Shown: positions 7,211-62,277, counted from the stretch's first letter. The stretch is DNA of 64,000 bases from a virus (IMGVR_UViG_3300034062_006900:12753-76752); one strand, 5' to 3'. The notes: generated by a model not told the origin, from the sequence alone. Program-made: numbers and translations.

Positions 7211-8055
7211 TGAAATTTATACCCATATTAGAAACTGTTATTTTAGAACAAAAGAGATTTAAGTTTGACCCCGAGACATATGCAAATATGGTAAGAATCA
7301 CTGAGAAGTTATGGGGATTAAGAAATAAAGAATTGACAAGAAAGACACAAGTTGATGGGTTTAAATTCAAAACTTCTGATGGAACTGACGGTTATGTCAA
7401 AATAATTATTAACCCAAGATTAAAATATATTGGATATATGGATACAAGACCTAAGGATTCTCGTGACCCAATGGATTTTGTAATGGAAGTTCAACCAAAA
7501 GAATATGTTTCGAAGAAGAATTTATTCTTAACGATATACCATGAAATGCTTCACGCTACTGACCCATCACAATCAACAAAACTTAACCAAAAGTATCAGA
7601 CAACATACAACGAAAAAAGTGACAAACAGTATTGGGGCCATCCTATCGAGTTCAGAGCAATTACAAATGAATTCTTGGAAGGTTTGGTTTTAGAATATAA
7701 GAGAAGATTCGGTAGACTTAGAAATCAAGAAAACAGAAAGTTTCTTTCTAAATCCCTTAAGAATATTCTAAACTACTTTGCTAAAGGTGAACCCTTATCT
7801 AAATTATCTCTTGATGTTATTAGCAGAATAAATGATGAAAATGTTTTAGATAATAAAATATCTCAACTTGTTTCTGATATGCCAACAGATTTCCCTGGTG
7901 TCTCTGAATTTATGGGCACAAAGGAGGAACCTTATTACATCACATACATTGAATTAATTAAGAAACATAATCCTGAAATATGGAAAAGATTCTTAACCAT
8001 GTTATACAATACATCTTATGAGATTGAAGATATTCTAAAAGAAAAAGGGGTTTAA
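7207..8055 (+). CDS. HExxH zincin-like protein
   Basis: [11 protein letters not shown]...[10 protein letters not shown]; leader ILETVILEQ. Confidence 0.6.
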
Positions 8056-8068
8056 ATTAACCCCTTTT
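8043..8068. terminator. bidirectional terminator between convergent genes
   Basis: AAAAGGGGTT-TAAATT-AACCCCTTTT. Confidence 0.7.
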
Positions 8069-10091
8069 CTTTTGCTATAATTTCTAATGTTTCTAATTTA
8101 GACTCGCTATCATCAAGAATAGCTGATTGTTCTTTAATTGCTTCTAAACATAACGCAATCATATCATAATACTTTATCTGATAATATGAATTTTCACTAT
8201 CTGATTTGAAGACTAATTCAGGAACTACGTGTTGAACTTCTTGTGCAATAAAACCTATTTCACGTTCAGTCTCTCTATTTTCTGCTTGATAATCAAAATT
8301 CTTCCAATCGTAGTATACACCTCTAAGTTTGAGAACTTTATCTAATGCTCCTTCGATGGTTTTAATTTCTTTCTTAAATCTTTTATCTGACGGTCCTGGT
8401 GCACCTGTTGCTCCTTGAGCACCTTGTGGTCCTCCTGGTCCTGGTCCTCCTGCAGGTCCTTGTCCTCCTGGAACTCCCTGGAAACCTGTTGGTCCTCCAG
8501 CTCCTCCCGGTCCTATAAATCCTGTAGGTCCAGTTGCACCTTGAGCCCCTTGTGGACCACCACCTCCACCAGGTCCCCCAGCACCTTGAGCACCTGTTGC
8601 TCCACCACCTCCTTGAGCTCCTTGGAATCCTACAGGGCCTTGAGGACCTTGGGCTCCTTGTGGACCTTGTCCTCCTTGAGAACCTTGCGAACCTTGTGGC
8701 CCAACAGAGCCTTGTCCTCCTTGCGGACCACGTCCACCTTGTGAACCTTGTGGTCCTACGGCACCTTGTGAACCTTGTGGACCTGTCGGTCCTTGAGCTC
8801 CTTGAGCACCCTGTCCACCAGCAGGACCTTGTCCACCTTGAGGACCTCGTCCTCCTTGTGAACCTTGTGGTCCTACGGCACCTTGTGAACCTTGTGGACC
8901 TGTCGGTCCTTGAGCTCCTTGAGCACCCTGTCCACCAGCAGGACCTTGTCCTCCTTGGGGACCTCGTCCTCCTTGCGAACCTTGTGGTCCAACAGCACCT
9001 TGAGCACCTTGAGGACCCGTTGGTCCTTGAGAACCTTGGGCTCCTTGACCTCCTCCAGGTCCTTGAGCTCCTTGCGAACCTTGACCTCCTTGAGAACCTT
9101 GTGGTCCTACAGGACCTTGAGCTCCTTGTGGACCTTGTCCCCCTTGAGAACCTTGGGCTCCTTGACCTCCTGTTGGTCCCTGAGCACCTTGCGAACCTTG
9201 ACCTCCTTGAGCACCTTGAGCTCCAACAGCTCCTTGGGCACCTTGCCCACCTTGTGAACCTTGACCTCCTTGAGCACCTTGTCCACCTGCAGCCCCACCA
9301 GCACCTTGAGCACCTTGACCACCTTGTGAACCTTGTGGTCCTACTGGTCCTTGGGCTCCTTGTGGTCCTTGACCACCTTGAGCACCTTGAGCACCTTGAC
9401 CTCCCGCGGTTCCTTGAGCACCTTGTGAACCTTGACCTCCTTGAGCTCCTTGAGGTCCAGTATCACCTTGTGAACCCTGTAATCCTTGACCTCCTTGAGC
9501 ACCTTGTGCTCCTTGACCTCCTGTCGGACCTTGGAACCCTTGAGCACCCTGTGCACCAGCGGCTCCCTGAGCACCCTGACCACCTGTTGTTCCCTGAGCA
9601 CCTTGACTTCCTTGTGCACCGGCAGTTCCTTGAGCACCTGTTCCTCCTGAGTTTCCTTGAGCACCTTGGAAACCTTGAGCACCTGCTAGTCCTTGAGCTC
9701 CTTGAGCACCTGTGGGACCTTGGAAACCTTGAGCTCCTGTTGCACCTTCAGTTCCTTGTGCACCTTGTCCTCCAACAACTCCTTGCGACCCAGTAAAACC
9801 TGAAGCACCTTGAAAACCTTGAGGACCTTTCGGTTGTTGGTTTCCACGCCATCCTGTAGAGTTTATGATAGGGTTAACCGCAAAATTTGTGATACTAGCA
9901 AATCTGAGGTCAGCACTAGTAATCCTAAAGTTTGGATAAGAATTATCAATGTTCAGATTCCATGATTTTGCACCTTCGAAAAATCTTAAGGTTCCAGATT
10001 GTATTCTCCACCCAATAATTGTATCATCAAAACTTTGAAAGTTTATTATAGGGACAACGGGAATTATATTAATATTTTCATTTCCGGGCAT
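8052..10091 (-). CDS. collagen-like fibre chain 1 with C-terminal peptidase S74 chaperone
   Basis: 160 uninterrupted Gly-X-Y triplets (aa 89-568), then [10 protein letters not shown]...IGFIAQEV. Confidence 0.9.
8709..8990 (-). repeat. 117-bp (13-triplet) tandem repeat in chain 1
   Basis: Sequence at 8761 recurs at 8878; boundaries approximate. Confidence 0.8.
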
Positions 10092-12196
10092 TATATTAAT
10101 TCTTTTAACACATTTATTCTTTCGAGTATTGACTCAATTTTTTTCTGATTCTCTTGAACACTACCAACACCTATACTTACCATATAATTATATTGAACTG
10201 ACTTATATCCATCATAATCTGTAAAAACAACTTCAGGTAAAACCTCTTCCAAATCTTGAGCAATAAATCCTATCGAAGAACCTGTAAAAGCAAACTTATT
10301 TAAATTTAGTTTATTGTTCTTTATTTTATCATGTTCTTCATCCCATGTAAAAGAAACTCCTTCAATTTGTTTTGCAATTGATAACGGATTCTCAATTTTC
10401 TTGATATTATCTTTTAACCTTCTGTCCGATGGTGGTCCTGTTGGCCCTTGAGCACCTTCAGGCCCTGTTCCTCCTGGAGGACCTGGATTACCTGTAGGTC
10501 CTGGAGGACCTGCAGCTCCTGGACCTCCTGGCCCACCTGCTGGTCCTGGAGGTCCTTGTAGTCCTTTAGGACCTGGTGCACCTGTTGGTCCTGTTCCACC
10601 TCCTGGTCCTGGAGGACCTTGAGCACCTTGACCTCCTGTTCCACCTGTTGCACCAGCAGCTCCTCCTGTTCCTGTAAATCCTTGAGCCCCTATAAAACCT
10701 GGCGGTCCTACAGCTCCTTGAGCACCTTGAGTTGAACTTTGAGAACCTTGAGCTCCTTGGAATCCTGTAACGCCTTGAGCTCCTTGAACACCACTTTGAG
10801 AACCTTGGGCACCTGTTGGTCCTGTTGGACCAGGAGCTCCTTGAGCACCTGTATTTCCTCCTTGCGAACCTTGAGCTCCTTGGAATCCTGTAACACCTTG
10901 AGCTCCTTGAACTCCACTTTGAGCACCTTGGGCTCCTGTTGGTCCTGTTGGACCTGGAGCTCCTTGAGCACCTGTATTTCCTCCCTGTGAACCTTGAGCT
11001 CCTTGGAATCCTGTAACTCCCTGAGCACCTTGAGTTGAACTTTGAGAGCCTTGTGCTCCTGTTGGTCCTGTTGGCCCTATATTACCTTGAGCTCCTTGAC
11101 TAGGTCCTTGTGAACCTTGAGCACCTTGAGCACCTGTGTTTCCTGTTGCACCTGGTGTTGTGCTTTGAGAACCTTGGGCTCCTGTGAAACCTGCAGGTCC
11201 TGTCGCTCCTTGAGCTCCTTGCGTCACTCCTGTAGGACCCGGATTACCTGTAAATCCTTTTGGTCCTGTTGCACCCGCAACTGCACTTTGAGCACCTTGT
11301 GCTCCTGTGCTACCAGGTGCACCTATATTACCTTGAGCACCTGTATTGGCTCCTTGAGGACCTTGTGCTCCTTGTGCTCCTGTATTACCAGTCGCACCCG
11401 CATTTCCACTTTGAGCTCCTTGAGCACCTGTGAAACCTGTCGGACCTGTTGCTCCTTGTGCTCCTGTATTGGCACCTTGTGTTCCTTGTGCACCTGTATT
11501 ACCTGTTGGACCTGTAGCACCTGCCGTTGTGCTTTGGGCACCCTGAGCACCTTGGAAACCTGTCGGTCCTGTTGCACCTTGAGCACCCTGTGTAACTCCT
11601 TGGGGGCCAGGAAAACCTGCAAATCCTTTCGGACCTTGAGAACCCTGAGCACCTGTATTTGCACCTTGTGTTCCTTGAGCACCTGTATTACCTGTAGCTC
11701 CCTGAGAACCTTGTGCTCCCTGAAACACTCCCTGTGCACCTTGAGCCCCTGTAAATCCTGTGTCTCCCTGAGCACCTGATGCACCTGAAACATTACTTGT
11801 TGGTCCCTTAGGACCTGTTGCACCTTTCGGACCCTGAGCACCTTGTGCTCCACCAGCACCTCCCTGTGCACCTTGAGCACCTTGAGCACCTGTGATACCT
11901 TGAGCTCCCGTGTCTCCTGTTAAACCCTTAATACCATCCAATGGACCAATCCATACACCTACGGTGTTTATCATGGCAACACCACCAACGTAAGTAATAC
12001 CATTTGTAATTGAAGCTCCTGATGATGTTATGTTGGTATTACTTATTTCGAAACCTGCAGATACGGTTGCTGAAGATAAAGACAAAGCACCCGTAGACTT
12101 AACGTTGAATTGTAATTTAGACGTGTCATCATCAAAAACAATATGAGGGTCTGAATTTCCAGTTGTTCCTGTAGGATATATAATAACATTAGGCAT
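10091..12196 (-). CDS. collagen-like fibre chain 2 (periodically interrupted) with S74 chaperone
   Basis: 142 triplets plus 19 tetrapeptide interruptions (aa 88-589), then [10 protein letters not shown]...IGFIAQDL. Confidence 0.9.
10740..11030 (-). repeat. 123-bp (41-aa, 13-unit) tandem repeat in chain 2
   Basis: [41 protein letters not shown] repeated; boundaries approximate. Confidence 0.8.
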
Positions 12197-14490
12197 TATG
12201 ATAATTTGTTTTCAAGTTCGTTAATTTGTTCTTTGATATCTTCTATAAATACTTGTTGTGATTTTATAGCCTCAACCAACACACTATTCAATTTATTGTA
12301 ATCAATATAATAATATCCTTCTCCATTTATTGATACCACTTCAGGAAAATATAATCTCACATTCTGAGCAATTAGTCCGATAGCGTGAAGTCTTTGATGT
12401 TTTTCGAAATATGCATATTCAGATTTATTTAAATTAGTATTCCAATCATACTCTACCGCCTCCAACATCATTACCTTTTCTAATGCGTCATATATTGTTT
12501 CAATTTTTGTTTTTAAATTGACATCAGAAAAGTAACTACCGCAATCAGAATTATAATTTCCAAACCCACAAGTATTAGCAACATCATAACACACGCTTGA
12601 TTCTACGGCTCTAGTCCAATAACTGTTCCAATCACAAGTTCCATTGACACAGTTTGTAACATTAAGATATTTGGCTTCAAGCATACCTGTTGCAGCATTA
12701 TTTTGGCGAACAGATTGAGTGGACGGCATATTACACGCCGCTGTACAGCTACCACCCACAAAAAAAGCATATATTCCACAGGTTACTGCTGCAGGTCCCG
12801 TAGCACCCTGTGCTCCTTGAGCACCTGTTGGGCCTGTTGGACCTGAAGGTCCTGGTCCTCCCGTTGGGCCACCACCACCCTGAGGACCTCTTGGTCCTGG
12901 CGGACCATCAACACCTTGGAATCCTTGTCCTCCTTGAGCACCTTGAGCACCCTGTCCACCTCCACCACCTGGAGGTCCTTGAGCACCTTGGCTTCCTTGG
13001 CCTCCACCACCTCCGGGACCGCCTTGTGGTCCTCTTGGTCCTACAAAACCTACAGGACCACCTGGTCCTCCCGGACCTGTCGCACCTGTGGGTCCTAATA
13101 ATCCTGTGTCTCCTCCTGCTCCTGTCGGACCAGCAGCACCTGTAGGCCCTAATAGACCTTGAGCTCCTGTTGGTCCTGTAGGTCCTAATGGTCCTGTTGC
13201 ACCTTGTGCTCCAGGATGTCCTGTTCCTCCACCCGCTCCTGTCGGACCAGCAGCACCTGTTGGTCCTAATAGACCTTGAGCTCCTGTTGGTCCTGTAGGT
13301 CCTAATGGTCCTGTTGCACCTTGTGCTCCAGGATGTCCTGTTCCTCCACCCGCTCCTGTCGGACCAGCAGCACCTGTTGGTCCTAATAGACCTTGAGCTC
13401 CTGTTGGTCCTGTAGGTCCTAATGGTCCTGTTGCACCTTGTGCTCCAGGATGTCCTGTTCCACCTTGTGAACCCGTGGCTCCCTTTGGTCCTGTCGGTCC
13501 TAATAAACCTGTTGCACCCGTCGGTCCTGTTGGGCCTCCTGGTCCTGTAGCACCCGTCGGTCCTGGAGGACCGTCTACTCCTTGAAATCCTGTGGCTCCT
13601 TTTGGTCCTGTGGGTCCTAAAGCACCTTGAGCTCCCACAGCTCCACCTGGACCTGTTCCTCCTGTCGCACCTTGTGCTCCAGCAAATCCTGTAGCACCTT
13701 GAGCTCCAACAGCTCCACCTGGACCTGTTGCACCTATGGCTCCTTGAGCTCCCGCAGAACCTCCTGGCCCTGTTGGTCCTGTAGCACCTTGAGCACCTGG
13801 ATTTCCCGTTCCTCCTTGAGACCCCGTTGCACCCTTTGGTCCTGTTGGTCCTAATAAACCTTGAGCACCTGTTGGTCCTGTTGCACCTGTTGCACCAGCA
13901 GCTCCTGTTGGTCCTGGTGGACCATCAACTCCTTGAAATCCTTGAGCACCTGTGTTACCCGTGGCACCTTGAGCACCTGGATGTCCTGTTGCACCTTGAG
14001 CACCCACATTACCCTGTGCACCTATTGAACCTTGAGGTCCTAAGTTACCCTGTGCTCCTATTGGACCTTGAGGTCCTGTATTTCCTTGTGAACCCGTTGG
14101 TCCAGGAGAACCATCAACTCCTTGAAAACCTTGAGCCCCTTGAGCTCCCACAGCACCTTGAGCTCCATTATGCCCTGTCGAGCCCTGAGCTCCTTGAGGA
14201 CCTTGAGCTCCTTGAAGACCTTGGGCACCTGTAAGTCCACTCAGTGAACCTACCCAATCAGCTGTTCCATTAATTACCTGAACTCCACCTACCGTATAGT
14301 TGTCTATAACATTAATAGTATTTCCTGACACAATTCCACTCGCTAATGCAAGACTCGGTGTAGAACCGAAAGTAAGTGTTCCTGTCGTTAACATTCTAAC
14401 ACGAATACTAGCACTATTAATGAAATCAATATATGGGACCCTATCAGGAGTTCTAAAAATCGCGTTACTTGGGACAATTGTTATTGGCAT
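12196..14490 (-). CDS. collagen-like fibre chain 3 with Cys-rich tip and S74 chaperone
   Basis: 161 triplets (aa 85-567), a Cys-rich domain of about 90 aa, then YFSDVNLK...IGLIAQNV. Confidence 0.9.
13116..13465 (-). repeat. 117-bp (13-triplet) tandem repeat x3 in chain 3
   Basis: AATAGACC at 13151, 13268 and 13385; boundaries approximate. Confidence 0.85.
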
Positions 14491-14616: not shown

Positions 14617-15369
14617 ATGATACTAAAAAACACAAAAAACAAATTGTCCGAGATTAATTTGTTCTCAGATTATATTTTGAATCAAATACCTAACTCTGAA
14701 AGAAGTATAATCAAAATTGCTGATTGTGGTAATTTTCTAATCATCAAGGGTAAAACGACCCACAATGAATTATTAGATTTATCTAAAATAAAAACAGAAT
14801 TTTGTGAGAAGTTTAATATAAATTCTGACCCCAAATCTATTTTCAGTCATATGATAGATTTGATTGAATATGGTGTAAATCTACAACCAACAGAATCTAT
14901 CACTCACAACTACTTCAACAGCGAAAACTGTTCTTACAGTTATAAACAAGTTGAATCCTTTAAAAATAATCCTGAGTCTTCTTATGATTATTGTTTAAAG
15001 GTAAAGGAAGTCGATGAGAACGATTTGATTCTTGTTTCTGAGTTCCCTCACGGTCATTCATTAGAAATGGGAAGATTACTTTATTACTATGGTAAGAAAA
15101 TAACTTACTCAATTCCACCCACTTACCCATACACTTCTGTCGTGATGACCATCCCATCAAAAGACCCTGAAGAAAATTTCTCTGTTTATGATAATTTCTT
15201 GGAGTCTGAAGATGATAGTCTTAGGTCAGCTGTCTTAGATGTGTTTGATTTTGACATGACTGAATTAAATAAAAAACTCAAAGAAGTTGATTTCTACGAT
15301 GAGATAACCAACCCTTTGAGTGATTATGATTTCCTTAAAGAAAGGAATAAAGATTTCTTTGTTATCTAA
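14617..15369 (+). CDS. hypothetical protein, possible degenerate MetK (SAM synthetase)-like fold
   Basis: FSDYIL...LIIKGKTT, GRLLYYYGKKI and VLDVFDF weakly parallel MetK segments; no catalytic motifs. Confidence 0.35.
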   Translation: MILKNTKNKLSEINLFSDYILNQIPNSERSIIKIADCGNFLIIKGKTTHNELLDLSKIKTEFCEKFNINSDPKSIFSHMIDLIEYGVNLQPTESITHNYFNSENCSYSYKQVESFKNNPESSYDYCLKVKEVDENDLILVSEFPHGHSLEMGRLLYYYGKKITYSIPPTYPYTSVVMTIPSKDPEENFSVYDNFLESEDDSLRSAVLDVFDFDMTELNKKLKEVDFYDEITNPLSDYDFLKERNKDFFVI

Positions 15370-15665
15370 ACGATACCAACTTTCTTACGATGTTTCTTTA
15401 CAATATCTAACGCTTCAGTTAGTTCCATATAGTCTCTATCAGGTGCATATAAGAAAGATTTAGGATTTGTATTTGAATCTTCAATGATTAAAAGTGCTGG
15501 TATCATATCATTTTTTGTTACCTCACTGAAAATATCATACTCTTCTTTATATTCATCAATATCTCTATCGATGTATTCTATTTTATTTTCCTCCAACATT
15601 TTTTTGAAGTCCGTGCAATGAGGACAACCTTTCATTGTATAAACAACCACGTTTAAATCTTTCAT
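15366..15665 (-). CDS. glutaredoxin
   Basis: VYTMKGCPHC...IP. Confidence 0.85.
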   Translation of the reverse strand: MKDLNVVVYTMKGCPHCTDFKKMLEENKIEYIDRDIDEYKEEYDIFSEVTKNDMIPALLIIEDSNTNPKSFLYAPDRDYMELTEALDIVKKHRKKVGIV

Positions 15666-15671
15666 AATAAA

Positions 15672-15995
15672 TTAATTTAATAAGGTCATTACCTCATTAG
15701 GAGACATTACGCCAGCCTTTGAGAATACCTCTTTGCCTTCTTTGAAGATTTTTATTGTTGGAACACTTCTGATTCCGAGTTCAGTCATCACATATTCTTT
15801 GTCTGTGTCGATATCATATTTGTAAATGTTATAAGATGGTGAACCATTTGATTCTTTGATTAAAGATTCATTCACCTTTGATAGGTTGTTGAGCATGATT
15901 TTGCAAGGTCCACACCATGTGGCGAAAAGGTCCAACACAAAGTTTTCACCTTCACTAATTTTTTGTTTAAGTTCTGCTGTTGTTAGTTGTTTCAT
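15672..15995 (-). CDS. trxA: thioredoxin
   Basis: ATWCGPCK...GIRSVPT. Confidence 0.9.
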   Translation of the reverse strand: MKQLTTAELKQKISEGENFVLDLFATWCGPCKIMLNNLSKVNESLIKESNGSPSYNIYKYDIDTDKEYVMTELGIRSVPTIKIFKEGKEVFSKAGVMSPNEVMTLLN

Positions 15996-35918: not shown

Positions 35919-35945
35919 AAAAACCCCACTTTGAGGGTGGGGTCT
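35919..35945 (-). terminator. repeated CCCCAC/GTGGGG terminator
   Basis: GACCCCACCCTCAAAGTGGGGTTTTT. Confidence 0.75.
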
Positions 35946-37590
35946 ATTTAATTCCTAATTTTTTTAGTATGTATGATTCTATATCTTCCTTCTTCATCGT
36001 GTAAGGTATACGGATAAGTTTGATTCCGTTTTTCTTACAGTATTGGTTTTTTATTTCATCTCTGATTTTTTGTCTCTCAAAAGCTTCTTCACCACCAAAA
36101 GTATCAATCGCCATAAAATGTTGCCTTCCATCATATTCCACGCACACATTCTTTATTGGTATGTAAAAATCGAATGGTAGTTTTCTACAAAATCTTCCTT
36201 CTTTTTTATTCGTACAATCCACAAATTTATATTGTTTTATAAAATCTATTTTTTGTTTTTCTAATATGGCTGCAATTAATTTTTCTCCAGTTGATTCGTT
36301 ACAAATTGGACATCCTTGTCCGCTTAAGTGGGCACCAGGTCTTTGTTTAAAAGTTCCATGAACCGGACAAACAATATCAACATATTTGTTTCTATTTTTA
36401 TAGTCGACTAAAGAATAATTGTATTTTTTGCCGTGAACAATTTTAGCCGACTTAATAAAATCTTCTGTGTTACTAACATTACTCTTAGATATTGATTCAA
36501 AACCACATTTTTGACATCCACTTCCACTCATATGAGCGTGAGGTGTTTGTAAAAACTCCCCATGAATTGGGCAAATAATTTTTACACGATTATTAATACC
36601 ATCGTATTCAACTTTCGAATAATCATATTTATCATCATGAACAAGATTAGATTTGTTAATAAATTCATCTTGAGTTAAACTATTTGCTTTACCAGTATTT
36701 TCTCGGGCACATTTTGGACATCCAGCACCGTCAAGTAAGTGATGTGCCGTAACTTTAAAGTCTCCGTGTTTTGGGCAGGTAACTATAACTTTTTCTGATG
36801 CCCCTTTGTATTGGGTTTTGGAAAAATCATATTTATCTCCATGAACAATTTTTATTTGTTTGAGAAATTCTTCAGGTGATTTTCTTTGTTTTTCTGCCGA
36901 GCTTTCTATTCCACATTTTGAACAACCACTACCCCTTAAATGACTTGTAGATGTTTGGAAAAATTTTCCATGTTCTGAACAAATAATTTCAATTGGTGTA
37001 TAATTGTTTTTATAAACAGATTTTGAATAATCATATTTATCTCCGTGAATTTCTTTAGCATTTTCTATGAATTTTTGGGTATTTGTTGATGTTAAAGATT
37101 CTCTCTTTGACTTCCTATTTTGAAGGTCTTTTTCTTTGGCACAGGATGGACATCCGTAACCCATTAAATGATTTCCTGGTGTTTGTCCAAAATCTCCATG
37201 AATGGGACAGGTAATGACTACTTTTTTTCCTCCTCCTTGATAATCCACTTTTTTATATCCGTATTTGTCTCCGTGCTTTTCAATCGCTTTGTTCACAAAA
37301 CTATCCTTATTACTTGTTAACTTTTCTTTAGCACTTTCACGACCACATTTTGGACAACCTTGTGGATTAACATTTGATATAAATTTATTTGGTGTTTTGG
37401 TAAATTCCCCATGTATTGGACAAACAATGGTGACAGGTTCTCCGCTATTTTTATACTTTACCTTTGAATAATCATATTTGTCTCCGTGAATTGTTTTAGC
37501 CTTTTCAATAAATTCAGGAGTAGTTGTTTTTTTTATCTCACCAATCTCCTTCGTATGTTCACGCAATATATGTCTAATCAGTTGTTTCAT
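35944..37590 (-). CDS. six Zn-ribbon (DUF723-like) repeats plus a Vsr-like nuclease domain (homing-endonuclease-like)
   Basis: Six HG.KY.Y...CPxHG...GCxxC units; GEKLI...PFDFY...EYDGRQH...KLIRIPY; start moved to MKQLIRH. Confidence 0.8.
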   Translation of the reverse strand: MKQLIRHILREHTKEIGEIKKTTTPEFIEKAKTIHGDKYDYSKVKYKNSGEPVTIVCPIHGEFTKTPNKFISNVNPQGCPKCGRESAKEKLTSNKDSFVNKAIEKHGDKYGYKKVDYQGGGKKVVITCPIHGDFGQTPGNHLMGYGCPSCAKEKDLQNRKSKRESLTSTNTQKFIENAKEIHGDKYDYSKSVYKNNYTPIEIICSEHGKFFQTSTSHLRGSGCSKCGIESSAEKQRKSPEEFLKQIKIVHGDKYDFSKTQYKGASEKVIVTCPKHGDFKVTAHHLLDGAGCPKCARENTGKANSLTQDEFINKSNLVHDDKYDYSKVEYDGINNRVKIICPIHGEFLQTPHAHMSGSGCQKCGFESISKSNVSNTEDFIKSAKIVHGKKYNYSLVDYKNRNKYVDIVCPVHGTFKQRPGAHLSGQGCPICNESTGEKLIAAILEKQKIDFIKQYKFVDCTNKKEGRFCRKLPFDFYIPIKNVCVEYDGRQHFMAIDTFGGEEAFERQKIRDEIKNQYCKKNGIKLIRIPYTMKKEDIESYILKKLGIK

Positions 37591-37614
37591 CTCACAATAA
37601 ATATCTTTGGAATT

Positions 37615-37643
37615 AAAAACCCCCACCGTTGAGGGTGAGGGTT
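37615..37643 (-). terminator. repeated CCCCAC/GTGGGG terminator
   Basis: AACCCTCACCCTCAACGGTGGGGGTTTTT. Confidence 0.75.
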
Positions 37644-49816: not shown

Positions 49817-52408
49817 TTACGAAGCAAGGGTTGTGTATAAAACTTTATAGGTTGCACCTGTCTCATTAAAGTTTTGTGGGGTTGCAAATACCACAGGAAC
49901 TTCATACACTGAATCAGGGTAGAAAAATGAATTTAACGTTTCAGAACCTACTTCAATTCCATTTTTATAGATTATTATCGTCACTGATTGATTACCAGAG
50001 TTGTTAACAGAGAAGTTAGCAACGTATGTTTTGATAGGAGTAGTGTAGAAAGTTGGTATTGTAAATATTTTAGTTCTAACAGAACCATTATTCAGCAACG
50101 GAGTATCTTCGTCTGACATCCTAATGTTCAAATTACATCCTGTAGGATAAACATCAGAGCAAACAATTCCCGCAACATAAACAGGATTGTTAACAAACAC
50201 CCCAACGGATGGATTTATTTGCCACTCGAATGTCATTGTTTGTTCTTGTGATTGTGCTATTAGTGTTTGATTTGAAATTCCTTGTGAAGTTTGAATCATA
50301 TTAACTGAACAACAACTACATCCGTCGATAATAGCAGATACAGGAACTATTGATACGGATTGAACTCCAGTTGCTACGCAACCATTAGCTGTCGCATAGT
50401 TTAATGGTGTAATCACTGATGTTGTTTGTCCTGAAATTATATCTGTAGGTGATACTGTGACAGTAATAGTTTCTGTGTAAGTTGTCTGTTGTGTCTGGTT
50501 AGGTGAACAATTTGGTCTATCAATCAACCGAACGACAGGAGTTGATGAAGTTGGCGAAATTAATACTCCATTATCATAAAAATTATTTGTTGCAGATATT
50601 ATGAATGTAGAAGCTGGTATATTATTGTAGAATGGTCCTTCAATTTTTTGAACTACATTAGCATTCAAACTTATTGTTGCGGTTGTTCCTTGAGGTAATG
50701 GTGGATTAATACCAAGAGTCCATGAGAATATTTGAGTCGTAGCGTTTAACTGTTGTATTCCAACTACTTGAATTGATACATCATGGTTAATAGGATTATT
50801 ATTAACCTGTAATTGAAGTATCTGAGATACTATTTGTCCATTACTATCTTTAGTGAACACTGTAAATTGTCCTGCACAAAGACCGTTGAAGATATTAGAT
50901 TGTTGATAGTTTATACCATCAATAGAATATGAATATGGACCAACTCCACCTGTAGTTGGTAATATAATTGAACCATTGCATGGTCCTGATGAACATCCTG
51001 TATTTGTCACTTGAGCATTTGATATTAAAGGTAATGATGTTGGGCAATTTCCTTGACTTGCACTAACGATAAGTTGATTTGAATTAGTTCCAGCAATACT
51101 CCAAGAAGATAATGGTATTAAAGCTTGTGAATAGCTCACAGGAATTCCACCACCTGTAAATCCGTCAATTTGCCATCTATTGATATTGTTACTGTTGTTC
51201 CAATACATTGTAAGTCCGTTCGCAGAACTTGTCCACTTATATCTACCATTTTGAGTTCCTGCCGGTATAAATTGGTAAGGACCATAACTTACATTAATTC
51301 CTTGAACTGTTATACAAATATTTGGAACATTGAATGACTGTGATGGTGTGATAGTCGGTGTTAATGTTGGAGTAACTGATGGTGTTGGTCCCAACAATGT
51401 GCAAATAGTCGTTGCAGTATAATCTCCATAATAATCAACCACCCTAACAGCATAAGACCCTCTACCAATGTTTGCCAATATTTGACTTGTGCTTCCATTA
51501 TTTAACCATAAAAAACTATAAGGACTTGTTCCTCCTGTTACATTAACAGTTAAAATACCATCTATTGAAGTAGATGAACTTGGCGATTGAATTATATTAC
51601 ATGAAACTCCCAAATCAAACAAAGTTGTAACCGCGCAATCATTAATCAATTTATAAACACCTGAAGGTGTTGTAGTAACAGTTGCCGTCGGGGTGATGCT
51701 TGGTGTTATGCTTGGAGTAACAGTATTAGTTGGTGTGGGTGTAACTGTTGGCGTTTGGGTTGTCGTTGGGGTTGGTGTAGGAGTAACACAAACAACCGAA
51801 GCAGCCTGATTGAGTTTTGTGATACCGAAATTAGGTAATTGGTAATTCAGAACAACAAGTTGTCCTGCACCTGTTCCTTGTTGGAAATTTCCACAACAAT
51901 CTGTGTAATAATATGTTGTTTGAGTAACACCACTTCCGCAAACAATTGGTGTTGTTGAAGGAGTTGGAGTTGGCGTTTTTGTAAGGGTTGGTGTTGGTGT
52001 ATTAGTTGGAGTCTGAGTTGGTGTTCTTGTTAATGTCGGTGTGATAGTTGGAGTTATCGAAACTGTTGGAGTGTTTGTCGGTGTAACAGTTGTCGTAGCG
52101 GTTGGAGTAACTGTTGGAGCAACAGGTTGACAATCTGAACTTGTTGAACAAGTCCCGCCAGTTGTTATTACAATACCTGATGGTGCTGGAATCAATGAAC
52201 CTGTTATACCATATTGAAAAGTTATTTGTCCGTTATTAACACACAAATCAATTTCAATACCTGACCCACTAATAGTATAAGGATAGTTTGTATATGATTG
52301 TGGCGCAACATTAACTCCTGAACAAGTAAGATAACCTACCCATAGATTGTTTCCCCCACTTTGTAAGGCTGAATTTGGTATTAATATGCTATTGCAAAGA
52401 CAGGACAT
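49817..52408 (-). CDS. Thr-Pro-rich, Cys-rich structural protein with SprB-like repeats
   Basis: TP linkers; VTGGTSPYSFLW...GSYAVRVVD and GGVGPYSYSIDG...FNGLCAG. Confidence 0.7.
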   Translation of the reverse strand: MSCLCNSILIPNSALQSGGNNLWVGYLTCSGVNVAPQSYTNYPYTISGSGIEIDLCVNNGQITFQYGITGSLIPAPSGIVITTGGTCSTSSDCQPVAPTVTPTATTTVTPTNTPTVSITPTITPTLTRTPTQTPTNTPTPTLTKTPTPTPSTTPIVCGSGVTQTTYYYTDCCGNFQQGTGAGQLVVLNYQLPNFGITKLNQAASVVCVTPTPTPTTTQTPTVTPTPTNTVTPSITPSITPTATVTTTPSGVYKLINDCAVTTLFDLGVSCNIIQSPSSSTSIDGILTVNVTGGTSPYSFLWLNNGSTSQILANIGRGSYAVRVVDYYGDYTATTICTLLGPTPSVTPTLTPTITPSQSFNVPNICITVQGINVSYGPYQFIPAGTQNGRYKWTSSANGLTMYWNNSNNINRWQIDGFTGGGIPVSYSQALIPLSSWSIAGTNSNQLIVSASQGNCPTSLPLISNAQVTNTGCSSGPCNGSIILPTTGGVGPYSYSIDGINYQQSNIFNGLCAGQFTVFTKDSNGQIVSQILQLQVNNNPINHDVSIQVVGIQQLNATTQIFSWTLGINPPLPQGTTATISLNANVVQKIEGPFYNNIPASTFIISATNNFYDNGVLISPTSSTPVVRLIDRPNCSPNQTQQTTYTETITVTVSPTDIISGQTTSVITPLNYATANGCVATGVQSVSIVPVSAIIDGCSCCSVNMIQTSQGISNQTLIAQSQEQTMTFEWQINPSVGVFVNNPVYVAGIVCSDVYPTGCNLNIRMSDEDTPLLNNGSVRTKIFTIPTFYTTPIKTYVANFSVNNSGNQSVTIIIYKNGIEVGSETLNSFFYPDSVYEVPVVFATPQNFNETGATYKVLYTTLAS

Positions 52409-53321: not shown

Positions 53322-56300
53322 TTAACATCCGAAATTTCCTACGTTTATGGAACCACTTATAAATAAAACACAAGTGCTGATAACTTGGTATCCGGTTCCG
53401 ACAAATAGACCTCCTCCATTGATTGCACAAGATTCAACGTCAGAATTGGTTCCTTGTAGAATTGTTCCCGATACTGCTATTGTGTTATATTGTCCCGAAA
53501 GAGGTTTATAATAAACCACTCTTAAAGTGTAATTAACATTCTGAGAAACAACAGAATCCAAGGTTATAAACCAATCCAAATGGTCTTGTTGGTCTCCTGC
53601 ACCACAGTTTACAAATATAGAACTCGTAGAGATAACTTTTGGTGGTGGAGGTGGTGGTGTTAAACAAGCTTCACAACTTGCAAATATCGTTGGTGTCAAT
53701 CCATCAAAATAATTTCCTGAATAAGTGAATGATGATGTGTTTACATCACTTGTAACATATGATGTTTCATATTGTCCTTTGTATCCCCAACAAGTTCCAT
53801 TATTATCTTTAAACGTTTGACCAACAGTTATTGTAAATCCAGCAGGTAAAGTTTGAATTACTTCAGAGAAAGAAACACCCTTAATTATTTTCTCACAAGT
53901 CTTGAACACATAAACATAGTTTGGTGTTGGAGTTATTGTAGGAGTAACACTTGGCGTAAGTGTAATTGTTGGTGTTATCGTTGGAGTGATAGTTGGTGTT
54001 TGGGTTGGTGTTGGCGTTTTGGTTGGTGTTATCGATGGAGTCGGTGGTGGAGTCAAACCTGGTGTAGGAGTGATAGTTGGTGTAATCGTATTTGTCGGTG
54101 TTATTGATGGTGTAATTGTATTTGTCGGTGTTGATGTTGTGTTAGGTGTCGGAGTTATTGTTGGGGTTATTGTCGGAGTATTTGAAACCGTTGGCGTAGG
54201 AGTAGGTGTAGATGGAATAAGACAAGGTCCACAATTACCATAGATGTCAAGGATTTCACCAACTGTTGAGTTTGATGATATCGATGTTGTATCTGCACTA
54301 TAAGTAGCACATGTTAAATTACCATTGATATACCCAAGTATTGTAATTGGTGGTTGTAAAGTAATTCCACTATAATACAAATCTTGTGCAACATAATATG
54401 TCACTTGAGTTGTGCAATCAATTAATATCTTCGTATTAACACAAGAGAACCCTTTGTTCATCATCTCAAATGTAACAGTTCCATTTATATCCAAAGGCAA
54501 CGTAGAAGATGGTGTTGGAGTGATGGTCGCAGTAACTTGAGGTGTGATTCCCGTAATTGAGAAGTCCAAACCTGTATTACAGTTAGGTGTCGGAGTTGGT
54601 GTCGGACTAACAGGAAATGCCGTAAGGTCAATATCCAAAACGGTAATGGTTGCCGAAGGTGTTGGAACTGGTTCCCAATCACAATCAAAATATGCCAAGA
54701 AATTAAGTTGACAATCTGATGGTGTTGGTGTTGGCGTAACACATGGTCCAGTTGTGAATGAAACCGATGCAATGTCAGGACAAACTGAATAACAAGGGCT
54801 TGAACCTTGGAGGTAACAAGTTCCTCCCAATGAGTCTGACAAACACCAATAACTTTCAGTTGAAGACGTGAAATAATATATCACACCCTGAGGACTTCCT
54901 GAATATGTTAATCTACCATTATAACTTGCTCCTGCGGTATAATTTCCATTATACATTGATAGACCTGAGAATGATGTTCTTAAACAAAACTCTGTATCAT
55001 CACAAACTCCAACTGTAGGAGTTATTGTCGGAGTAACTGTTGGCGTAGGATTTGGAGTTACAGTAGGTGTCGGAGTTAGAACACAGAAAGTGCAATCGTC
55101 AAAGTCAGGTGCACCCAAATAAGGACCACCAGGTCCTGAGAATTCAATGAACTTGTAACAAACGTCATTATATACATAAGCAGCATCAACGAAAGCAACA
55201 TCCGCATCAACAGTTGCATAAAATATTTCACCATTGTCACATCTCCCCATTTGAGCCGCCCTCTTATTTGTTCTTGGACAAACTGGGTCAAGACACCCTA
55301 TAGTATTTGTAAATGTAACGCCAGAAGCATTAAAAATAGGTCCGGCACCTGTATTTGCAACAACAGTAGCACATCCACTAAAATCAGTTCCCCCTGTAAT
55401 AACATAAACATCACCAAGAATTAATTGTGAAATTCCATTTCCAAATCTAAAGAAATTGGAACCGTCATCACAATCTTGGAATTGTATTACTATTCCTGAA
55501 GTTTGAGTTGGCGTTGGAGTTGGCGTCTCAGTTGTTGTCGGAGTCGGTGTGGAGGTCGGAGTATTTGTTGGTGTTTCAGTTACTGTAGGTGTAGGAGTTT
55601 CAGTTGGTGTCTCAGTTACTGTAGGTGTTGGCGTTTCAGTAGGTGTTTCAGTTACCGTAGGAGTTGGTGTTTCAGTAGGAGTTTGTGTAGGAGTTGGTGT
55701 TTCAGTTGGAGTTTGTGTAGGAGTATTTGAAGGTGGTAATCCAGGTGTCGGAGTGACCGTAGGTGTCGGAGTGGGCGTTTCTGTCTCGGTGATAGTAGGT
55801 GTCGGAGTGGGCGTTTCTGTGATGGTTGGCGTATTTGTTGATGTAGGCGTTGGTGTTGGAGTCGATGGACAAAACAATTGTCCAGTCGAAGCTATTGGAA
55901 TTAGTGTCCCTCCTGGGTCTGTAAATACCGAACCAGTAACAACCCAAACATTTCCTGGCGAGGTTACTCTATCGTCGATAGAGAATGTTCCAAAAGAGTA
56001 TTCTTCTGAATATTCTATAGAACTATCCGCACAATTTGTTATTTGATACCATACCGATACATTAATTGGTGTAGTAGTAGGTGTTGGAGTTTGTGTTTGA
56101 GTAACTGTTGAGGTTGGTGTTGGTGTTGGAGTTGGTGTTATCGGACCTCCTCCTGATGTTTGAGTAATTGTGGGTGTTGGTGTTTGAGTTGGAGTATCAG
56201 TGATAGTTGGTGTTGGAGTAATTGTTGGGTCAGGCGTTGGGTCAGGCGTTGGGTCAGGCGTTGGGGTTGGTGTTTCGGATTCTGTAGGGGTAGGTGTTGG

Positions 56301-56567
56301 TGCCCCACATGTCCCGACTGGTATTACCGTGCTAACACCCAATACTTGGGCATCGGTTTGATAATAATAGATATTAATTGGAAATGAATTATCAATACAG
56401 GCAAATAATAGGAATACTCCAGCTGTATTATATTGCTCCGTTCCAGGATTACCACTACAATCTGTGTATCCAACAAAGAGAACTCCGTTGAGGGCAGGAT
56501 TCGAGTTTCCCGTAGCATTTGCTAAGTCTGTGCTTTGGACATTAATATCGTAATTGAAACAAGCCAT
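53322..56567 (-). CDS. mucin-like Thr-Pro-rich, Cys-rich structural protein
   Basis: Long TPT(E/V/I)TP tracts separating Cys-rich modules; TATTTAT upstream. Confidence 0.8.
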
Positions 56568-59924: not shown

Positions 59925-59979
59925 AAAGTTTTATTTGATTAAAAATAATGTTTTACTAATTTTAAGTAAACTGATTAAC

Positions 59980-62277
59980 ATGGATAAAATGAAATTATAT
60001 TTCCACGGTTCTTATATTGGAAATACAGGATTTAATAATCATACAAGAGATTTTACAAGAAGCCTCTCAGAACATTTAGATATCAAAGTTAGAAACTTTA
60101 CTGTAGGTTCTACTTGGGATGGTTTTTCCGAAACCCCTCATGACAAGGAATCTTACATTGATGACCTTGATAAAAAAATACTATACGAACAAAATCTTTG
60201 GGCAGAAAATAAAGAAAGAAAAGATTTTAAAATTTACCCTTCAGATGAAAAAAATTTCATACACGACTTTAACATCATCCTGAATGAAACAAATCACTAT
60301 TTTTTTTACGACAATTACATCGGACCAAAAATTGGATATACTGTTTGGGAATCTACTCTTTTACCTGATGGATTTTTCAATAAATTAAAAGAATACGATG
60401 AGGTATGGACACCATCCAAGTGGCAGAAAGAATGCATGGTTAAACAAGGAATGTCAGAGGACTTCATCAAAGTTGTTCCTGAAGGAGTTGATGACCAAGT
60501 TTTTTTTCCTGAAGAGGTCGATGACGTTTTGAATGAATATAAAGACGGTAGATTTAAATTTATACTGTTTGGTAGATGGGATTACAGAAAATCCACTAAA
60601 GAAATTATCGAAACCTTCTTGAAAACATTTGACAAGTCAGAGCCTATTGATTTAATTGTCTCCATTGATAATCCTTGGGGTGAATCTATTGATGGATTCA
60701 AGTCCACTGAGGAAAGACTCAAACATTACGGATTAGATGATGAAAGAGTAAAAATTATTCATTTTCCATCGAGACAGGACTATATCAAGTTTATCAAGAA
60801 GGGTCATGTTTTTGTATCATGTGCAAGAGCTGAGGGATGGAACTTACCTCTCATCGAAGCGATGGCGAGTGGAACCCCATCAATTTATTCGAATTGTTCA
60901 GGTCAGTTGGAATTTGCTAATGGTAGAGGTATACCTGTGAACATTTTAGGTGAGACCCCAACAAATGGTAACACTTATGGTCGTTTTAGTATGGGTGAAA
61001 TACCTGGAAATTACTACGAACCCGATTTTAATCATTTATCAGAAATGATGAGACTTTCATATGAAAAATATGACACACTCAAAAAAATTGCAGTTGTAGA
61101 TTCAGAAAAAATAAGAGAAGAATTTAATTGGAAAAAAATTGGAGAAATTGGTTTTGATGCTTGTAAGTCGTTCTACGAAAAAATACAATCTAAAGAAAAA
61201 AGTGAAAATGAAATCATTGTTAGTTTCTTAGATGGTCCTAAAGTTGAAATATTAGGAAACTCATATTCAAAATATCATGTAGAGTTCTTGGATGAAAATA
61301 TGAATTTAATTCATAGTGAAACAATCACTACTGGTATGTGGACCAAAGCAAGTAGAAAATACTACACAAAATGGACGGTAAAAATAAATGGTTTGGTTGT
61401 TCATGAATTTGATTTGTCAGGTAAAAAAGTTCTAATTTCATTAGAATCTAAATCTATAGGTGATACGATTGCTTTCGCACCGTATGCTATCGAATTCGCT
61501 CAAAAACACAACTGTAAAGTAATACTCTCTACTTTTCATAATGAATGGTTCGAAGGGTCAGATTACTATAAAAAAATACAATTTATCAAACCAGGTGAGA
61601 GTGTTGGGTGTTATGCAGTTTATAAAGTAGGTTGGTTCAGAGACGATAATGATGGTTGGAGAAAATTTGATTATTATCCAAATCAGTTGAATTTACAACC
61701 TCTTCAGAAGACTGCAACGGATATATTAGGATTGGAATTCAAAGAATTGAATTATGGAGTAAAAGTAGATGTCAAACCTAAAAGAATAGAAGGGAAATAT
61801 GTTGTTATAGGGCCTCACTCTACTGCTGGGTGTAAAGAATGGCCATACGAAAATTGGAGTATCTTAGCCAAAATGTTAAATGATTTAGGATATAGTGTTT
61901 ATTCTTTATCTCATCAAGATTTCAATTATCCTCACATTAAAAATTTGAAAGAAAAAACTTGGAATGAGGTTTTTAACTATCTTATACATGCCGATTTATT
62001 TATTGGATTGAGTTCGGGTTTATCGTGGATTAATTGGGCCTTAGGAAAAAAAGGAGTAATGATTGCAGGATTTACAAAAGATGACCACGAATTTCAACAT
62101 AATCTTATTAGAATTTCTAATCCTGTTTGTATTAAATGTTGGTGTGACCCTGTTCTTAAATTTGATGGTGGTGATTGGAATTGGTGTCCTGTTTACAAAG
62201 GAACCGAACTTCAACATATATGTCAGAAATCCATAACCCCTAATCAAGTCTTTTCAGAATTAAAAAAATTATTATGA
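59980..62277 (+). CDS. GT4 glycosyltransferase fused to a TibC/Aah-like (BAHT) protein O-glycosyltransferase
   Basis: EGWNLPLIEAMASG (GT4); SIGDTIAF, FIGLSSGLSWINW and CIKCW...WCP...IC iron-finger cysteines; start moved to MDKMK. Confidence 0.85.
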   Translation: MDKMKLYFHGSYIGNTGFNNHTRDFTRSLSEHLDIKVRNFTVGSTWDGFSETPHDKESYIDDLDKKILYEQNLWAENKERKDFKIYPSDEKNFIHDFNIILNETNHYFFYDNYIGPKIGYTVWESTLLPDGFFNKLKEYDEVWTPSKWQKECMVKQGMSEDFIKVVPEGVDDQVFFPEEVDDVLNEYKDGRFKFILFGRWDYRKSTKEIIETFLKTFDKSEPIDLIVSIDNPWGESIDGFKSTEERLKHYGLDDERVKIIHFPSRQDYIKFIKKGHVFVSCARAEGWNLPLIEAMASGTPSIYSNCSGQLEFANGRGIPVNILGETPTNGNTYGRFSMGEIPGNYYEPDFNHLSEMMRLSYEKYDTLKKIAVVDSEKIREEFNWKKIGEIGFDACKSFYEKIQSKEKSENEIIVSFLDGPKVEILGNSYSKYHVEFLDENMNLIHSETITTGMWTKASRKYYTKWTVKINGLVVHEFDLSGKKVLISLESKSIGDTIAFAPYAIEFAQKHNCKVILSTFHNEWFEGSDYYKKIQFIKPGESVGCYAVYKVGWFRDDNDGWRKFDYYPNQLNLQPLQKTATDILGLEFKELNYGVKVDVKPKRIEGKYVVIGPHSTAGCKEWPYENWSILAKMLNDLGYSVYSLSHQDFNYPHIKNLKEKTWNEVFNYLIHADLFIGLSSGLSWINWALGKKGVMIAGFTKDDHEFQHNLIRISNPVCIKCWCDPVLKFDGGDWNWCPVYKGTELQHICQKSITPNQVFSELKKLL

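Follow-up and report, generated by a model that had tools for sequence, protein, structure and literature searches.

Three collagen-like genes, here designated A, B and C, lie next to one another in a stretch of viral DNA of 64,000 nucleotides (IMGVR_UViG_3300034062_006900:12753-76752), referred to below as the window, which covers 64 kb of a 76.7-kb IMG/VR record with an estimated completeness of 26%. The question raised by this locus (positions 8052-14490) is whether the three products form separate fibres or are the chains of a single one. A strict constraint was found to couple the number of Gly-registered units, and in part the local repeat layout, of the three genes. The simplest physical cause of such a shared constraint is three chains in one helix closed at both ends, and we infer that A, B and C are three chains of one fibre in a T4-like jumbo phage, most likely a 1:1:1 heterotrimeric triple helix with one copy of each chain (ABC), at a probability of about 0.65. 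This reading is strengthened by conservation of units rather than residues, by inserts that leave the unit sums matched, by conserved translational coupling and by a structural model of the N-domains.

Gene layout and the shared lattice

Head to tail on the minus strand, the gene order is A, then B, then C. Features of the trio are given below with window positions and amino acid (aa) ranges; repeat periods and matches were obtained with Tandem Repeats Finder, and array extents were taken from a local-period map.

12196-14490, minus: gene A (chain 3 of the preliminary description), open reading frame (ORF) of 764 aa
14239-14490, minus: N-domain of A, aa 1-84
12790-14238, minus: collagen of A, aa 85-567, 161 Gly-X-Y units, no interruption
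13102-13461, minus: youngest 13-unit (117-bp) repeats of A, 3.1 copies, 97% matches
13120-13883, minus: larger repeat array of A, 6.5 copies, including the youngest repeats
12529-12789, minus: Cys-rich tip of A, ~88 aa, aa 568-654, Cys columns conserved in 8 orthologues
12196-12528, minus: S74 domain of A, from Ser655, Pfam match at aa 655-719
12194-12198, minus: TAATG overlap, stop of A and start of B
10091-12196, minus: gene B (chain 2 of the preliminary description), ORF of 701 aa
11936-12196, minus: N-domain of B, aa 1-87
10430-11935, minus: collagen of B, aa 88-589, 161 triplet-equivalents plus 19 one-residue extras
10712-11074, minus: youngest 13-unit repeats of B, 3.0 copies, 89% matches
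reaching ~11587, minus: wider repeat array of B
10091-10429, minus: S74 domain of B, aa 590-701
10089-10093, minus: TAATG overlap, stop of B and start of C
8052-10091, minus: gene C (chain 1 of the preliminary description), ORF of 679 aa
9828-10091, minus: N-domain of C, aa 1-88
8388-9827, minus: collagen of C, aa 89-568, 160 uninterrupted units, Gln-rich at Y
8646-9533, minus: 13-unit (117-bp) repeat array of C, 7.6 copies, 80% matches overall
8052-8387, minus: S74 domain of C

All three proteins matched Pfam Collagen (PF01391; E=8.7e-48 for A, 2.1e-41 for B and 8.6e-38 for C, all above the cut-off) and, at the extreme C-terminus, Peptidase_S74 (PF13884; 41, 57.4 and 62.8 bits versus a cut-off of 22; E=2.3e-10 in gene A), and these were the three Peptidase_S74 matches in the whole record. 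With long Gly-X-Y tracts above the family cut-off, the proteins are predicted to fold as collagen triple helices; the collagen chains are nearly without charge. The region has ~50% G+C versus 33% genome-wide, because of its Gly and Pro codons. Pairwise identity among A, B and C was 26-30% for the N-domains and ~36% for the S74 domains, and on the basis of these low values the three genes are regarded as old paralogues with the same domain order. ORFs, Pfam matches and junction reads agree with the preliminary description, which had reported three divergent collagen-S74 genes joined by TAATG overlaps; the IN...W.G motif that it placed ahead of each collagen was also recovered, with I, N, W and G invariant across the three N-domains.

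Units were counted by script. The collagens hold 161 units in A, 161 triplet-equivalents in B and 160 units in C, the same totals (160, 161 and 161 for chains 1, 2 and 3) that had been counted by hand. The collagen of chain B has 502 residues, and subtracting the 19 extras gives 483, the length of chain A. When counting was begun at the invariant W-x-G glycine that closes each N-domain, the result was 162/162/162 units.

The extra residues of chain B alternate between two forms, G-x-x-x and G-x-Q with S-x-x-x after it. Counted from GLT, they form nodes at units 8,15,22,29,36,43,49,...,127, with a spacing of 7,7,7,7,7,6,7,6...; these positions use the parse of the preliminary description (S-x-x-x tetrapeptides after G-x-Q), and the first node depends on reading GGAG within an ambiguous GGAGGAQ stretch. 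With this parse, all 19 tetrapeptide positions claimed for chain 2 were reproduced. Chain A has a Y residue other than Q/T at 19/19 nodes at offset 0 (other offsets, 12 at most), and in chain C, Y is a residue other than Gln at 19/19 nodes for offset -2 (other offsets, 11 at most). None of 100,000 random 6/7 lattices equalled the score of chain A or that of chain C. Calling a chain A triplet 'unusual' is partly subjective, as 36% of its triplets have a Y other than Q/T; the lattice test is objective despite this wording. The earlier claims that the unusual triplets of chain 3 fall on the chain 2 nodes, and that chain 1 carries a non-Gln-Y triplet two units before every node, were both upheld at every position. 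A 13-unit duplication had also been described in each gene (117, 123 and 117 bp), and Tandem Repeats Finder returned the same periods; the 123-bp repeat of chain B corresponds to 39 aa plus two extra residues.

Unit numbers across orthologous trios

Related loci were collected by searching with the C-terminal region of A and the S74 domain of B, which gave ~90 loci from viral and metagenome contigs, and their collagen ORFs were sorted into A, B and C by end domains, by script. This yielded 23 complete distinct trios with identical gene order, plus many loci with two complete genes, from lake metagenomes, in T4-like jumbo phages. In the 23 complete trios, the distinct chains come from distinct genes that are always adjacent, with end domains 26-37% identical; S74 identity is 53-75% between orthologues versus the ~36% seen among chains within a genome. 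The A/B junction is TAATG (1-nucleotide overlap) in 21/23 trios, and the B/C junction of the relatives is an 8-nucleotide overlap with a GTG start in nearly all. Periodic +1 interruptions were present in the B orthologues of every trio.

Across the trios, unit numbers span 96-360 and are matched within each genome (98/98/96, 118/118/117, 141/140/137, 144/143/141, 153/153/150, 158/157/155, 183/182/180, 262/263/264, 269/269/270 and, in the longest trio, L122/L123 at L122:78-12748, 360/360/359; ~360 units correspond to roughly 310 nm). Among 20 non-redundant complete trios, Pearson r between gene counts was 0.986-0.988. The summed within-trio range was 196, versus a mean of 1904 when genes were shuffled among genomes, and 0 of 200,000 such permutations gave a value as low; matching persisted when the 130-185-unit class was analyzed alone. 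Adjacent complete gene pairs differed by 3 units or fewer in 42/66 cases. Besides the window, exactly equal W-x-G-anchored counts were obtained for L137 and L140 (216 in each gene) and for pairs at 141/141 and 264/264; an anchored value of 173 in all three genes is a composite of two near-identical contigs, L089 and L090.

Length shifts fall on several separate branches of the end-domain tree. Between L158 and L159, whose collagens are ~90% identical, every gene of the trio shows a difference of 14 units, located in the zone of units ~24-41. The nearest relatives of the window, L089/L090, have one additional 13-unit repeat per gene (39, 41 and 39 residues, the 41 residues of chain B including its two extra residues) and have two fewer triplets in each gene, in a non-repetitive Pro-rich C-terminal zone. 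This mirrored two-triplet change, which lies outside the repeats, would be difficult to account for if unit number were not directly constrained. Elsewhere, B is longer than A by its extras, with 372 versus 354 residues at 118 units and 841 versus 810 at 269 units; the conserved quantity is Gly-registered units and not residues, of which B has 4-5% more. The preliminary description had proposed that the chains expand in concert, and this is borne out by the joint variation of orthologous trios and by the equal increments in sister phages.

Local periods are also shared. In the window, a 13-unit period occurs in all three genes at units ~78-112, and in L158 and L159 a period of 7 units gives way to one of 6, at an axial place common to the three genes. 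At positions with one or more chains off period 7, chains agreed in 18% of cases within the same genome versus 3.7% between different genomes, and zones of recent repeats overlapped twice as much within genomes as between them. Support for coupling from this source is moderate.

Several trios carry globular cassettes that interrupt the collagen of one chain only, at the following positions.

L006:8612-9151 and L100:2261-2800: PA14 cassette, ~180 aa, chain A, mid-collagen
L136:7732-8280 and L146:7207-7755: PA14 cassette, ~180 aa, chain C, mid-collagen
L137:6829-7290 (chain B) and L150:13853-14311 (chain C): 153-aa cassette, flanked by GAQGGT ... GPVG

Across the inserts, the unit sums stay matched (215 / 17+198 / 214; 178 (183) / 182 / 94+86; 263 / 265 / 105+157). 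The PA14 domain (PF07691, E=2.6e-11) interrupts A in two lineages and C in a further one, with flanking triplets alike at all sites (GAQGGV ... GLSGA). The 153-aa cassette, for which no Pfam family was matched, occupies axial sites that are far apart, after unit 17 or after unit 94. As the same flanking triplets are found wherever the cassettes sit, the cassettes appear to have moved between chains; at the corresponding unit of the other two chains, nothing clear by way of a special feature was found. A further globular domain of ~235 aa, ending with a conserved GYTCP.GY...C motif, follows 4-6 triplets beyond the A-type N-domain in L013, L156, L150, L122, L094, L095, L145 and L164.

The N-domains of the longest trio (L122/L123) are permuted, such that the N-domain of A is joined to a B-type collagen and S74, that of C to the A tip, and that of B to the S74 of C; the junction types move along with the N-domains. 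This permutation leaves the composition of a heterotrimer unchanged. Separately, an unrelated phage contig contains two neighbouring collagen genes (L050:8867-10288 and 11350-13479) of 78 units each, with near-identical N-domains and different C-termini, one with S74 and the other with Kelch-like repeats, which suggests a recent duplication accompanied by exchange of the tip.

End domains, assembly and rival explanations

All three S74 domains of the window, and those of all listed orthologues, contain an S-D-x-x-[LFM]-K motif. The Ser at the cleavage site and the Lys five residues on correspond to the catalytic dyad of the endosialidase chaperone, and conservation of the motif suggests that the S74 domains cleave themselves here as well. 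The collagen of B and C runs straight into S-D-x-x-L/F-K (S-D-R-R-L-K in B of the window). After the predicted cleavage, B and C would consist of an N-domain and a bare rod, and only A would keep a tip, the variable Cys-rich domain of ~88 aa that precedes its S74. No family was found for this tip in PHROGs and Pfam, and an AlphaFold2 model of the A tip with S74 was too poor to use (mean predicted local distance difference test (pLDDT) score, 42.5). The S74 domain of chain C resembles PDB 6F45 (long tail fiber distal subunit; E=8.7e-07).

No PHROG or Pfam family matched the N-domains of A, B and C. Searching by word index with residues 1-90 of the B N-domain gave nothing at E<=0.001, and a full profile search gave only 36 short fragments among 1.84 billion representatives, so these searches provide no functional lead. 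For multimer modelling, the N-domains of A, B and C were combined, each extended by six triplets and supplied with a separate alignment. This gave a median score of 0.61, against 0.02 for the best control; in calibration, the mark used was reached by 58/80 solved complexes and by 2/110 mismatched pairs. Contact agreement among runs was at least 68%, and partner pLDDT was at least 60. In this model, the three N-domains are predicted to intertwine.

A mechanism can be outlined from these features. Translational coupling, judging by the conserved overlaps, would yield roughly equimolar chains. The three diverged S74 domains would associate at the C-terminus and set chain choice and register, and this association would nucleate zipping of the helix from C to N, in the style of procollagen C-propeptides, after which each S74 domain would cut itself off at its conserved Ser...Lys motif. 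At the other end, the N-domains would close the rod as an intertwined trimer, as the model supports, and anchor it to the virion, at the tail, neck or head. The mature rod would measure ~138 nm (483 residues x 0.286 nm) and have one Cys-rich tip, contributed by chain A; the rods of relatives would additionally bear a single lateral PA14-type sugar-binding domain, from the cassette-bearing chain. With both ends closed, the number of Gly-registered units would have to be equal in the three chains, so that when one gene gained or lost a repeat, the other two would follow suit. Every 6-7 units, the additional residue in chain B would protrude from the helix at places fixed relative to the special triplets of A and C. 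Seven triplets make up the axial repeat of a 7/2 collagen helix; we speculate that nodes spaced 7 units apart would accordingly share a single face of the rod, and that the one-residue extras might curve it or mark that face.

Several points weigh against a single ABC helix. All of its support is comparative or modelled. Taken by itself, chain A is built like a standard homotrimeric tail fibre, with shaft, tip and S74, and in a heterotrimer its ~88-aa tip must loop out between the collagen end and S74. The N-domain model cannot separate ABC from AAA, BBB and CCC, and homotrimer paralogues could pass it. To our knowledge, all S74 domains characterised to date act in homotrimers. Prokaryotic collagen-like proteins are likewise described as homotrimers (PMC8968730). 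In addition, a difference of at least 7 units, most frequently 13-14, separates the two genes in 20/66 adjacent complete pairs, and a minority of trios disagree (L004, 157/170/160; L006, 173/159/171; L097, 134/130/98; L111, 100/140/118); if real, such counts would mean that large mismatches are tolerated. A difference of 13-14 units equals one repeat quantum, and copy number varies among near-identical contigs of common lake origin (L105 versus L111; L087/89/90/91). Logan public short-read contigs break inside the repeat arrays, the joints being repeat cross-matches with sides of 20-30 letters, and the Logan contigs of 20 lake-water runs neither confirm nor refute the copy numbers. Given these breaks, and near-identical strains that differ in copy number, collapse of repeats in short-read assembly is a likely cause of the discordance. 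Assembly errors of this kind would blur concordance rather than create it.

The homotrimeric precedents, the complete classical layout of chain A and the discordant trios would also be expected if A, B and C formed three separate homotrimeric fibres (A3, B3 and C3) on one virion, selected for equal reach, and the three old, distinct S74 types could equally prevent mixing. We consider this unlikely, as selection for reach would be blind to 1-2 triplets (0.9-1.7 nm in 85-310 nm), whereas counts are often identical and a loss of two triplets is mirrored in three genes. Registered units are what is conserved, B being 4-5% longer in residues; an insert of 150-180 aa would alter the length of one fibre, yet the unit sum stays matched. 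Separate fibres give no reason why local period should be shared or why repeats should be gained in matching axial zones, and B3 and C3 would be left without a distal domain after cleavage. Equal unit numbers and a shared local period would likewise be demanded by in-register co-assembly other than 1:1:1, as a side-by-side bundle of three homotrimers fastened at both ends or as mixed trimers of variable composition (A2B, AB2), and the N-domain model shows only that the N-domains can pack together. Such assemblies seem quite unlikely: cleaved B and C would have nothing to hold their distal ends together, the nearly uncharged chains offer no obvious lateral glue, one-to-one translational coupling and exactly three genes fit 1:1:1 best, and more parts are needed for the same data. 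It is very improbable that equal lengths are left over from ancestral triplication and within-gene conversion with no functional coupling, a caveat raised in the preliminary description. Paralogy is clear, the genes having one domain order in common and a repeat logic of 7 or 13 units, but orthologue lengths differ more than three-fold, and the three genes shift jointly on several branches, matched changes that postdate phage divergence and that this caveat cannot explain. Moreover, the youngest repeats have 97% DNA identity, versus 26-30% protein identity for the N-domains, so they are much younger than the triplication.

Carrier phages, related systems and implications

A relative carrying the same trio is a complete 317-kb record with a T4-type Gp23 capsid gene (E=3.3e-62) and no match to a capsid of nucleocytoplasmic large DNA viruses (NCLDV). 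By gene content, carriers of the trio are T4-like jumbo phages. Origin from a giant eukaryotic virus was rejected on the basis of Gp23 and the lack of an NCLDV capsid hit in this relative, GTG starts and overlapping genes in the orthologues, and PHROG matches. The stretch at 8052-14490 was recovered from 20 lake-water metagenome runs of 2020-2025 (75-96% of sampled words), and the phage is therefore widespread and persistent in lakes. PHROG tail-fibre families match the trio through its collagen and S74 parts; no recognisable tail module was found around it in the window, and a neighbouring gene gave no match by tblastn against GenBank phages.

Other genes of the window include the following.

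15366-15995, minus: genes for a glutaredoxin-like protein (CPHC) and a thioredoxin-like one (WCGPC), ~0.9 kb past the start of gene A
35944-37626, minus: 560-aa protein with DUF723, treble-clef zinc finger (DUF4379), CapR homology and DUF2726-like parts
49817-52408 and 53322-56567, minus: neighbouring ORFs of 863 and 1081 aa, both matching phrog_15511
59935-62277, plus: 780-aa protein joining GT1-type and GT9 (heptosyltransferase-type) glycosyltransferase domains

The CPHC and WCGPC genes may be ordinary nucleotide-reductase helpers or may be relevant to the Cys-rich tip. Thr- and Gln-rich collagens of Bacillus are glycosylated, and modification of the fibre is for this reason worth considering for the GT1/GT9 protein. 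The two phrog_15511 ORFs probably encode structural proteins that are paralogues (one has a further match, to a 'virion structural protein' family), and the 560-aa protein looks like a nuclease or defence-related mosaic.

Complement C1q is an ABC heterotrimer encoded by three adjacent paralogous genes with collagen tracts of equal length; its C-terminal domains choose and register the chains, and an inserted residue in one chain gives a kink. The phage trio resembles it in having adjacent paralogous genes, equal tracts and Gly-X-Y interruptions in some chains only. Unlike the trio, C1q is an animal protein with a short collagen tract, gC1q domains that are retained as a functional head, one interruption and no periodic lattice, self-cleaving chaperone or repeat-number evolution. 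The endosialidase, T5 pb1 and the S16-type fibre (6F45) share with the trio an S74 domain, with the S-D-x-x-L-K motif, that ends a trimeric fibre. Those known S74 fibres are homotrimers of one gene product, whereas here three diverged S74 types invariably co-occur and a tip domain is missing from two of the three chains.

In procollagens I, IV and IX, a C-propeptide, NC1 or NC2 domain directs homo- or heterotrimer formation, stagger and C-to-N zipping (PMC8968730). The selector domain of fibrillar procollagen is later removed, which is comparable to the role proposed for S74; in the trio, the candidate selector is a self-removing Peptidase_S74 domain, unrelated in sequence to any collagen NC domain. 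Scl1/2 of Streptococcus and BclA of Bacillus likewise have Gly-X-Y repeats without hydroxyproline, are Thr/Gln-rich with variable repeat number and form hair-like or fibre structures (PMC8968730). Tail-fibre motifs termed 'bacteriophage collagen' are credited to Smith et al. 1998 in PMC1079782. Unlike the trio, these bacterial and phage collagen-like proteins are described as homotrimers of a single gene (PMC8968730), and heterotrimeric collagens have been taken to be an animal invention. In the open-access literature, no earlier heterotrimeric phage or bacterial collagen and no three-gene length co-variation was found described. The trio would probably be the first natural ABC collagen outside animals, with S74 chaperones acting as C-propeptides, three-fold length tuning through repeat changes copied into all three genes, and a rod whose asymmetry along its length would come from one-residue bulges in one chain and from single lateral lectin-type domains.

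If A, B and C do form one ABC helix, they would provide a small, hydroxyproline-free and bacterially expressible system for register-defined heterotrimeric collagens, which have been a long-standing difficulty in collagen engineering, and one in which the selector removes itself. The dozens of natural trios constitute a natural experiment in which a shared structural number is kept, even as it varies three-fold, through compensatory repeat evolution, and they may show what a triple helix tolerates, from periodic one-residue bulges to whole domains looped out of one chain. For phages, the ABC helix would represent a new route to a fibre that bears its tip and its side domains in single copy.

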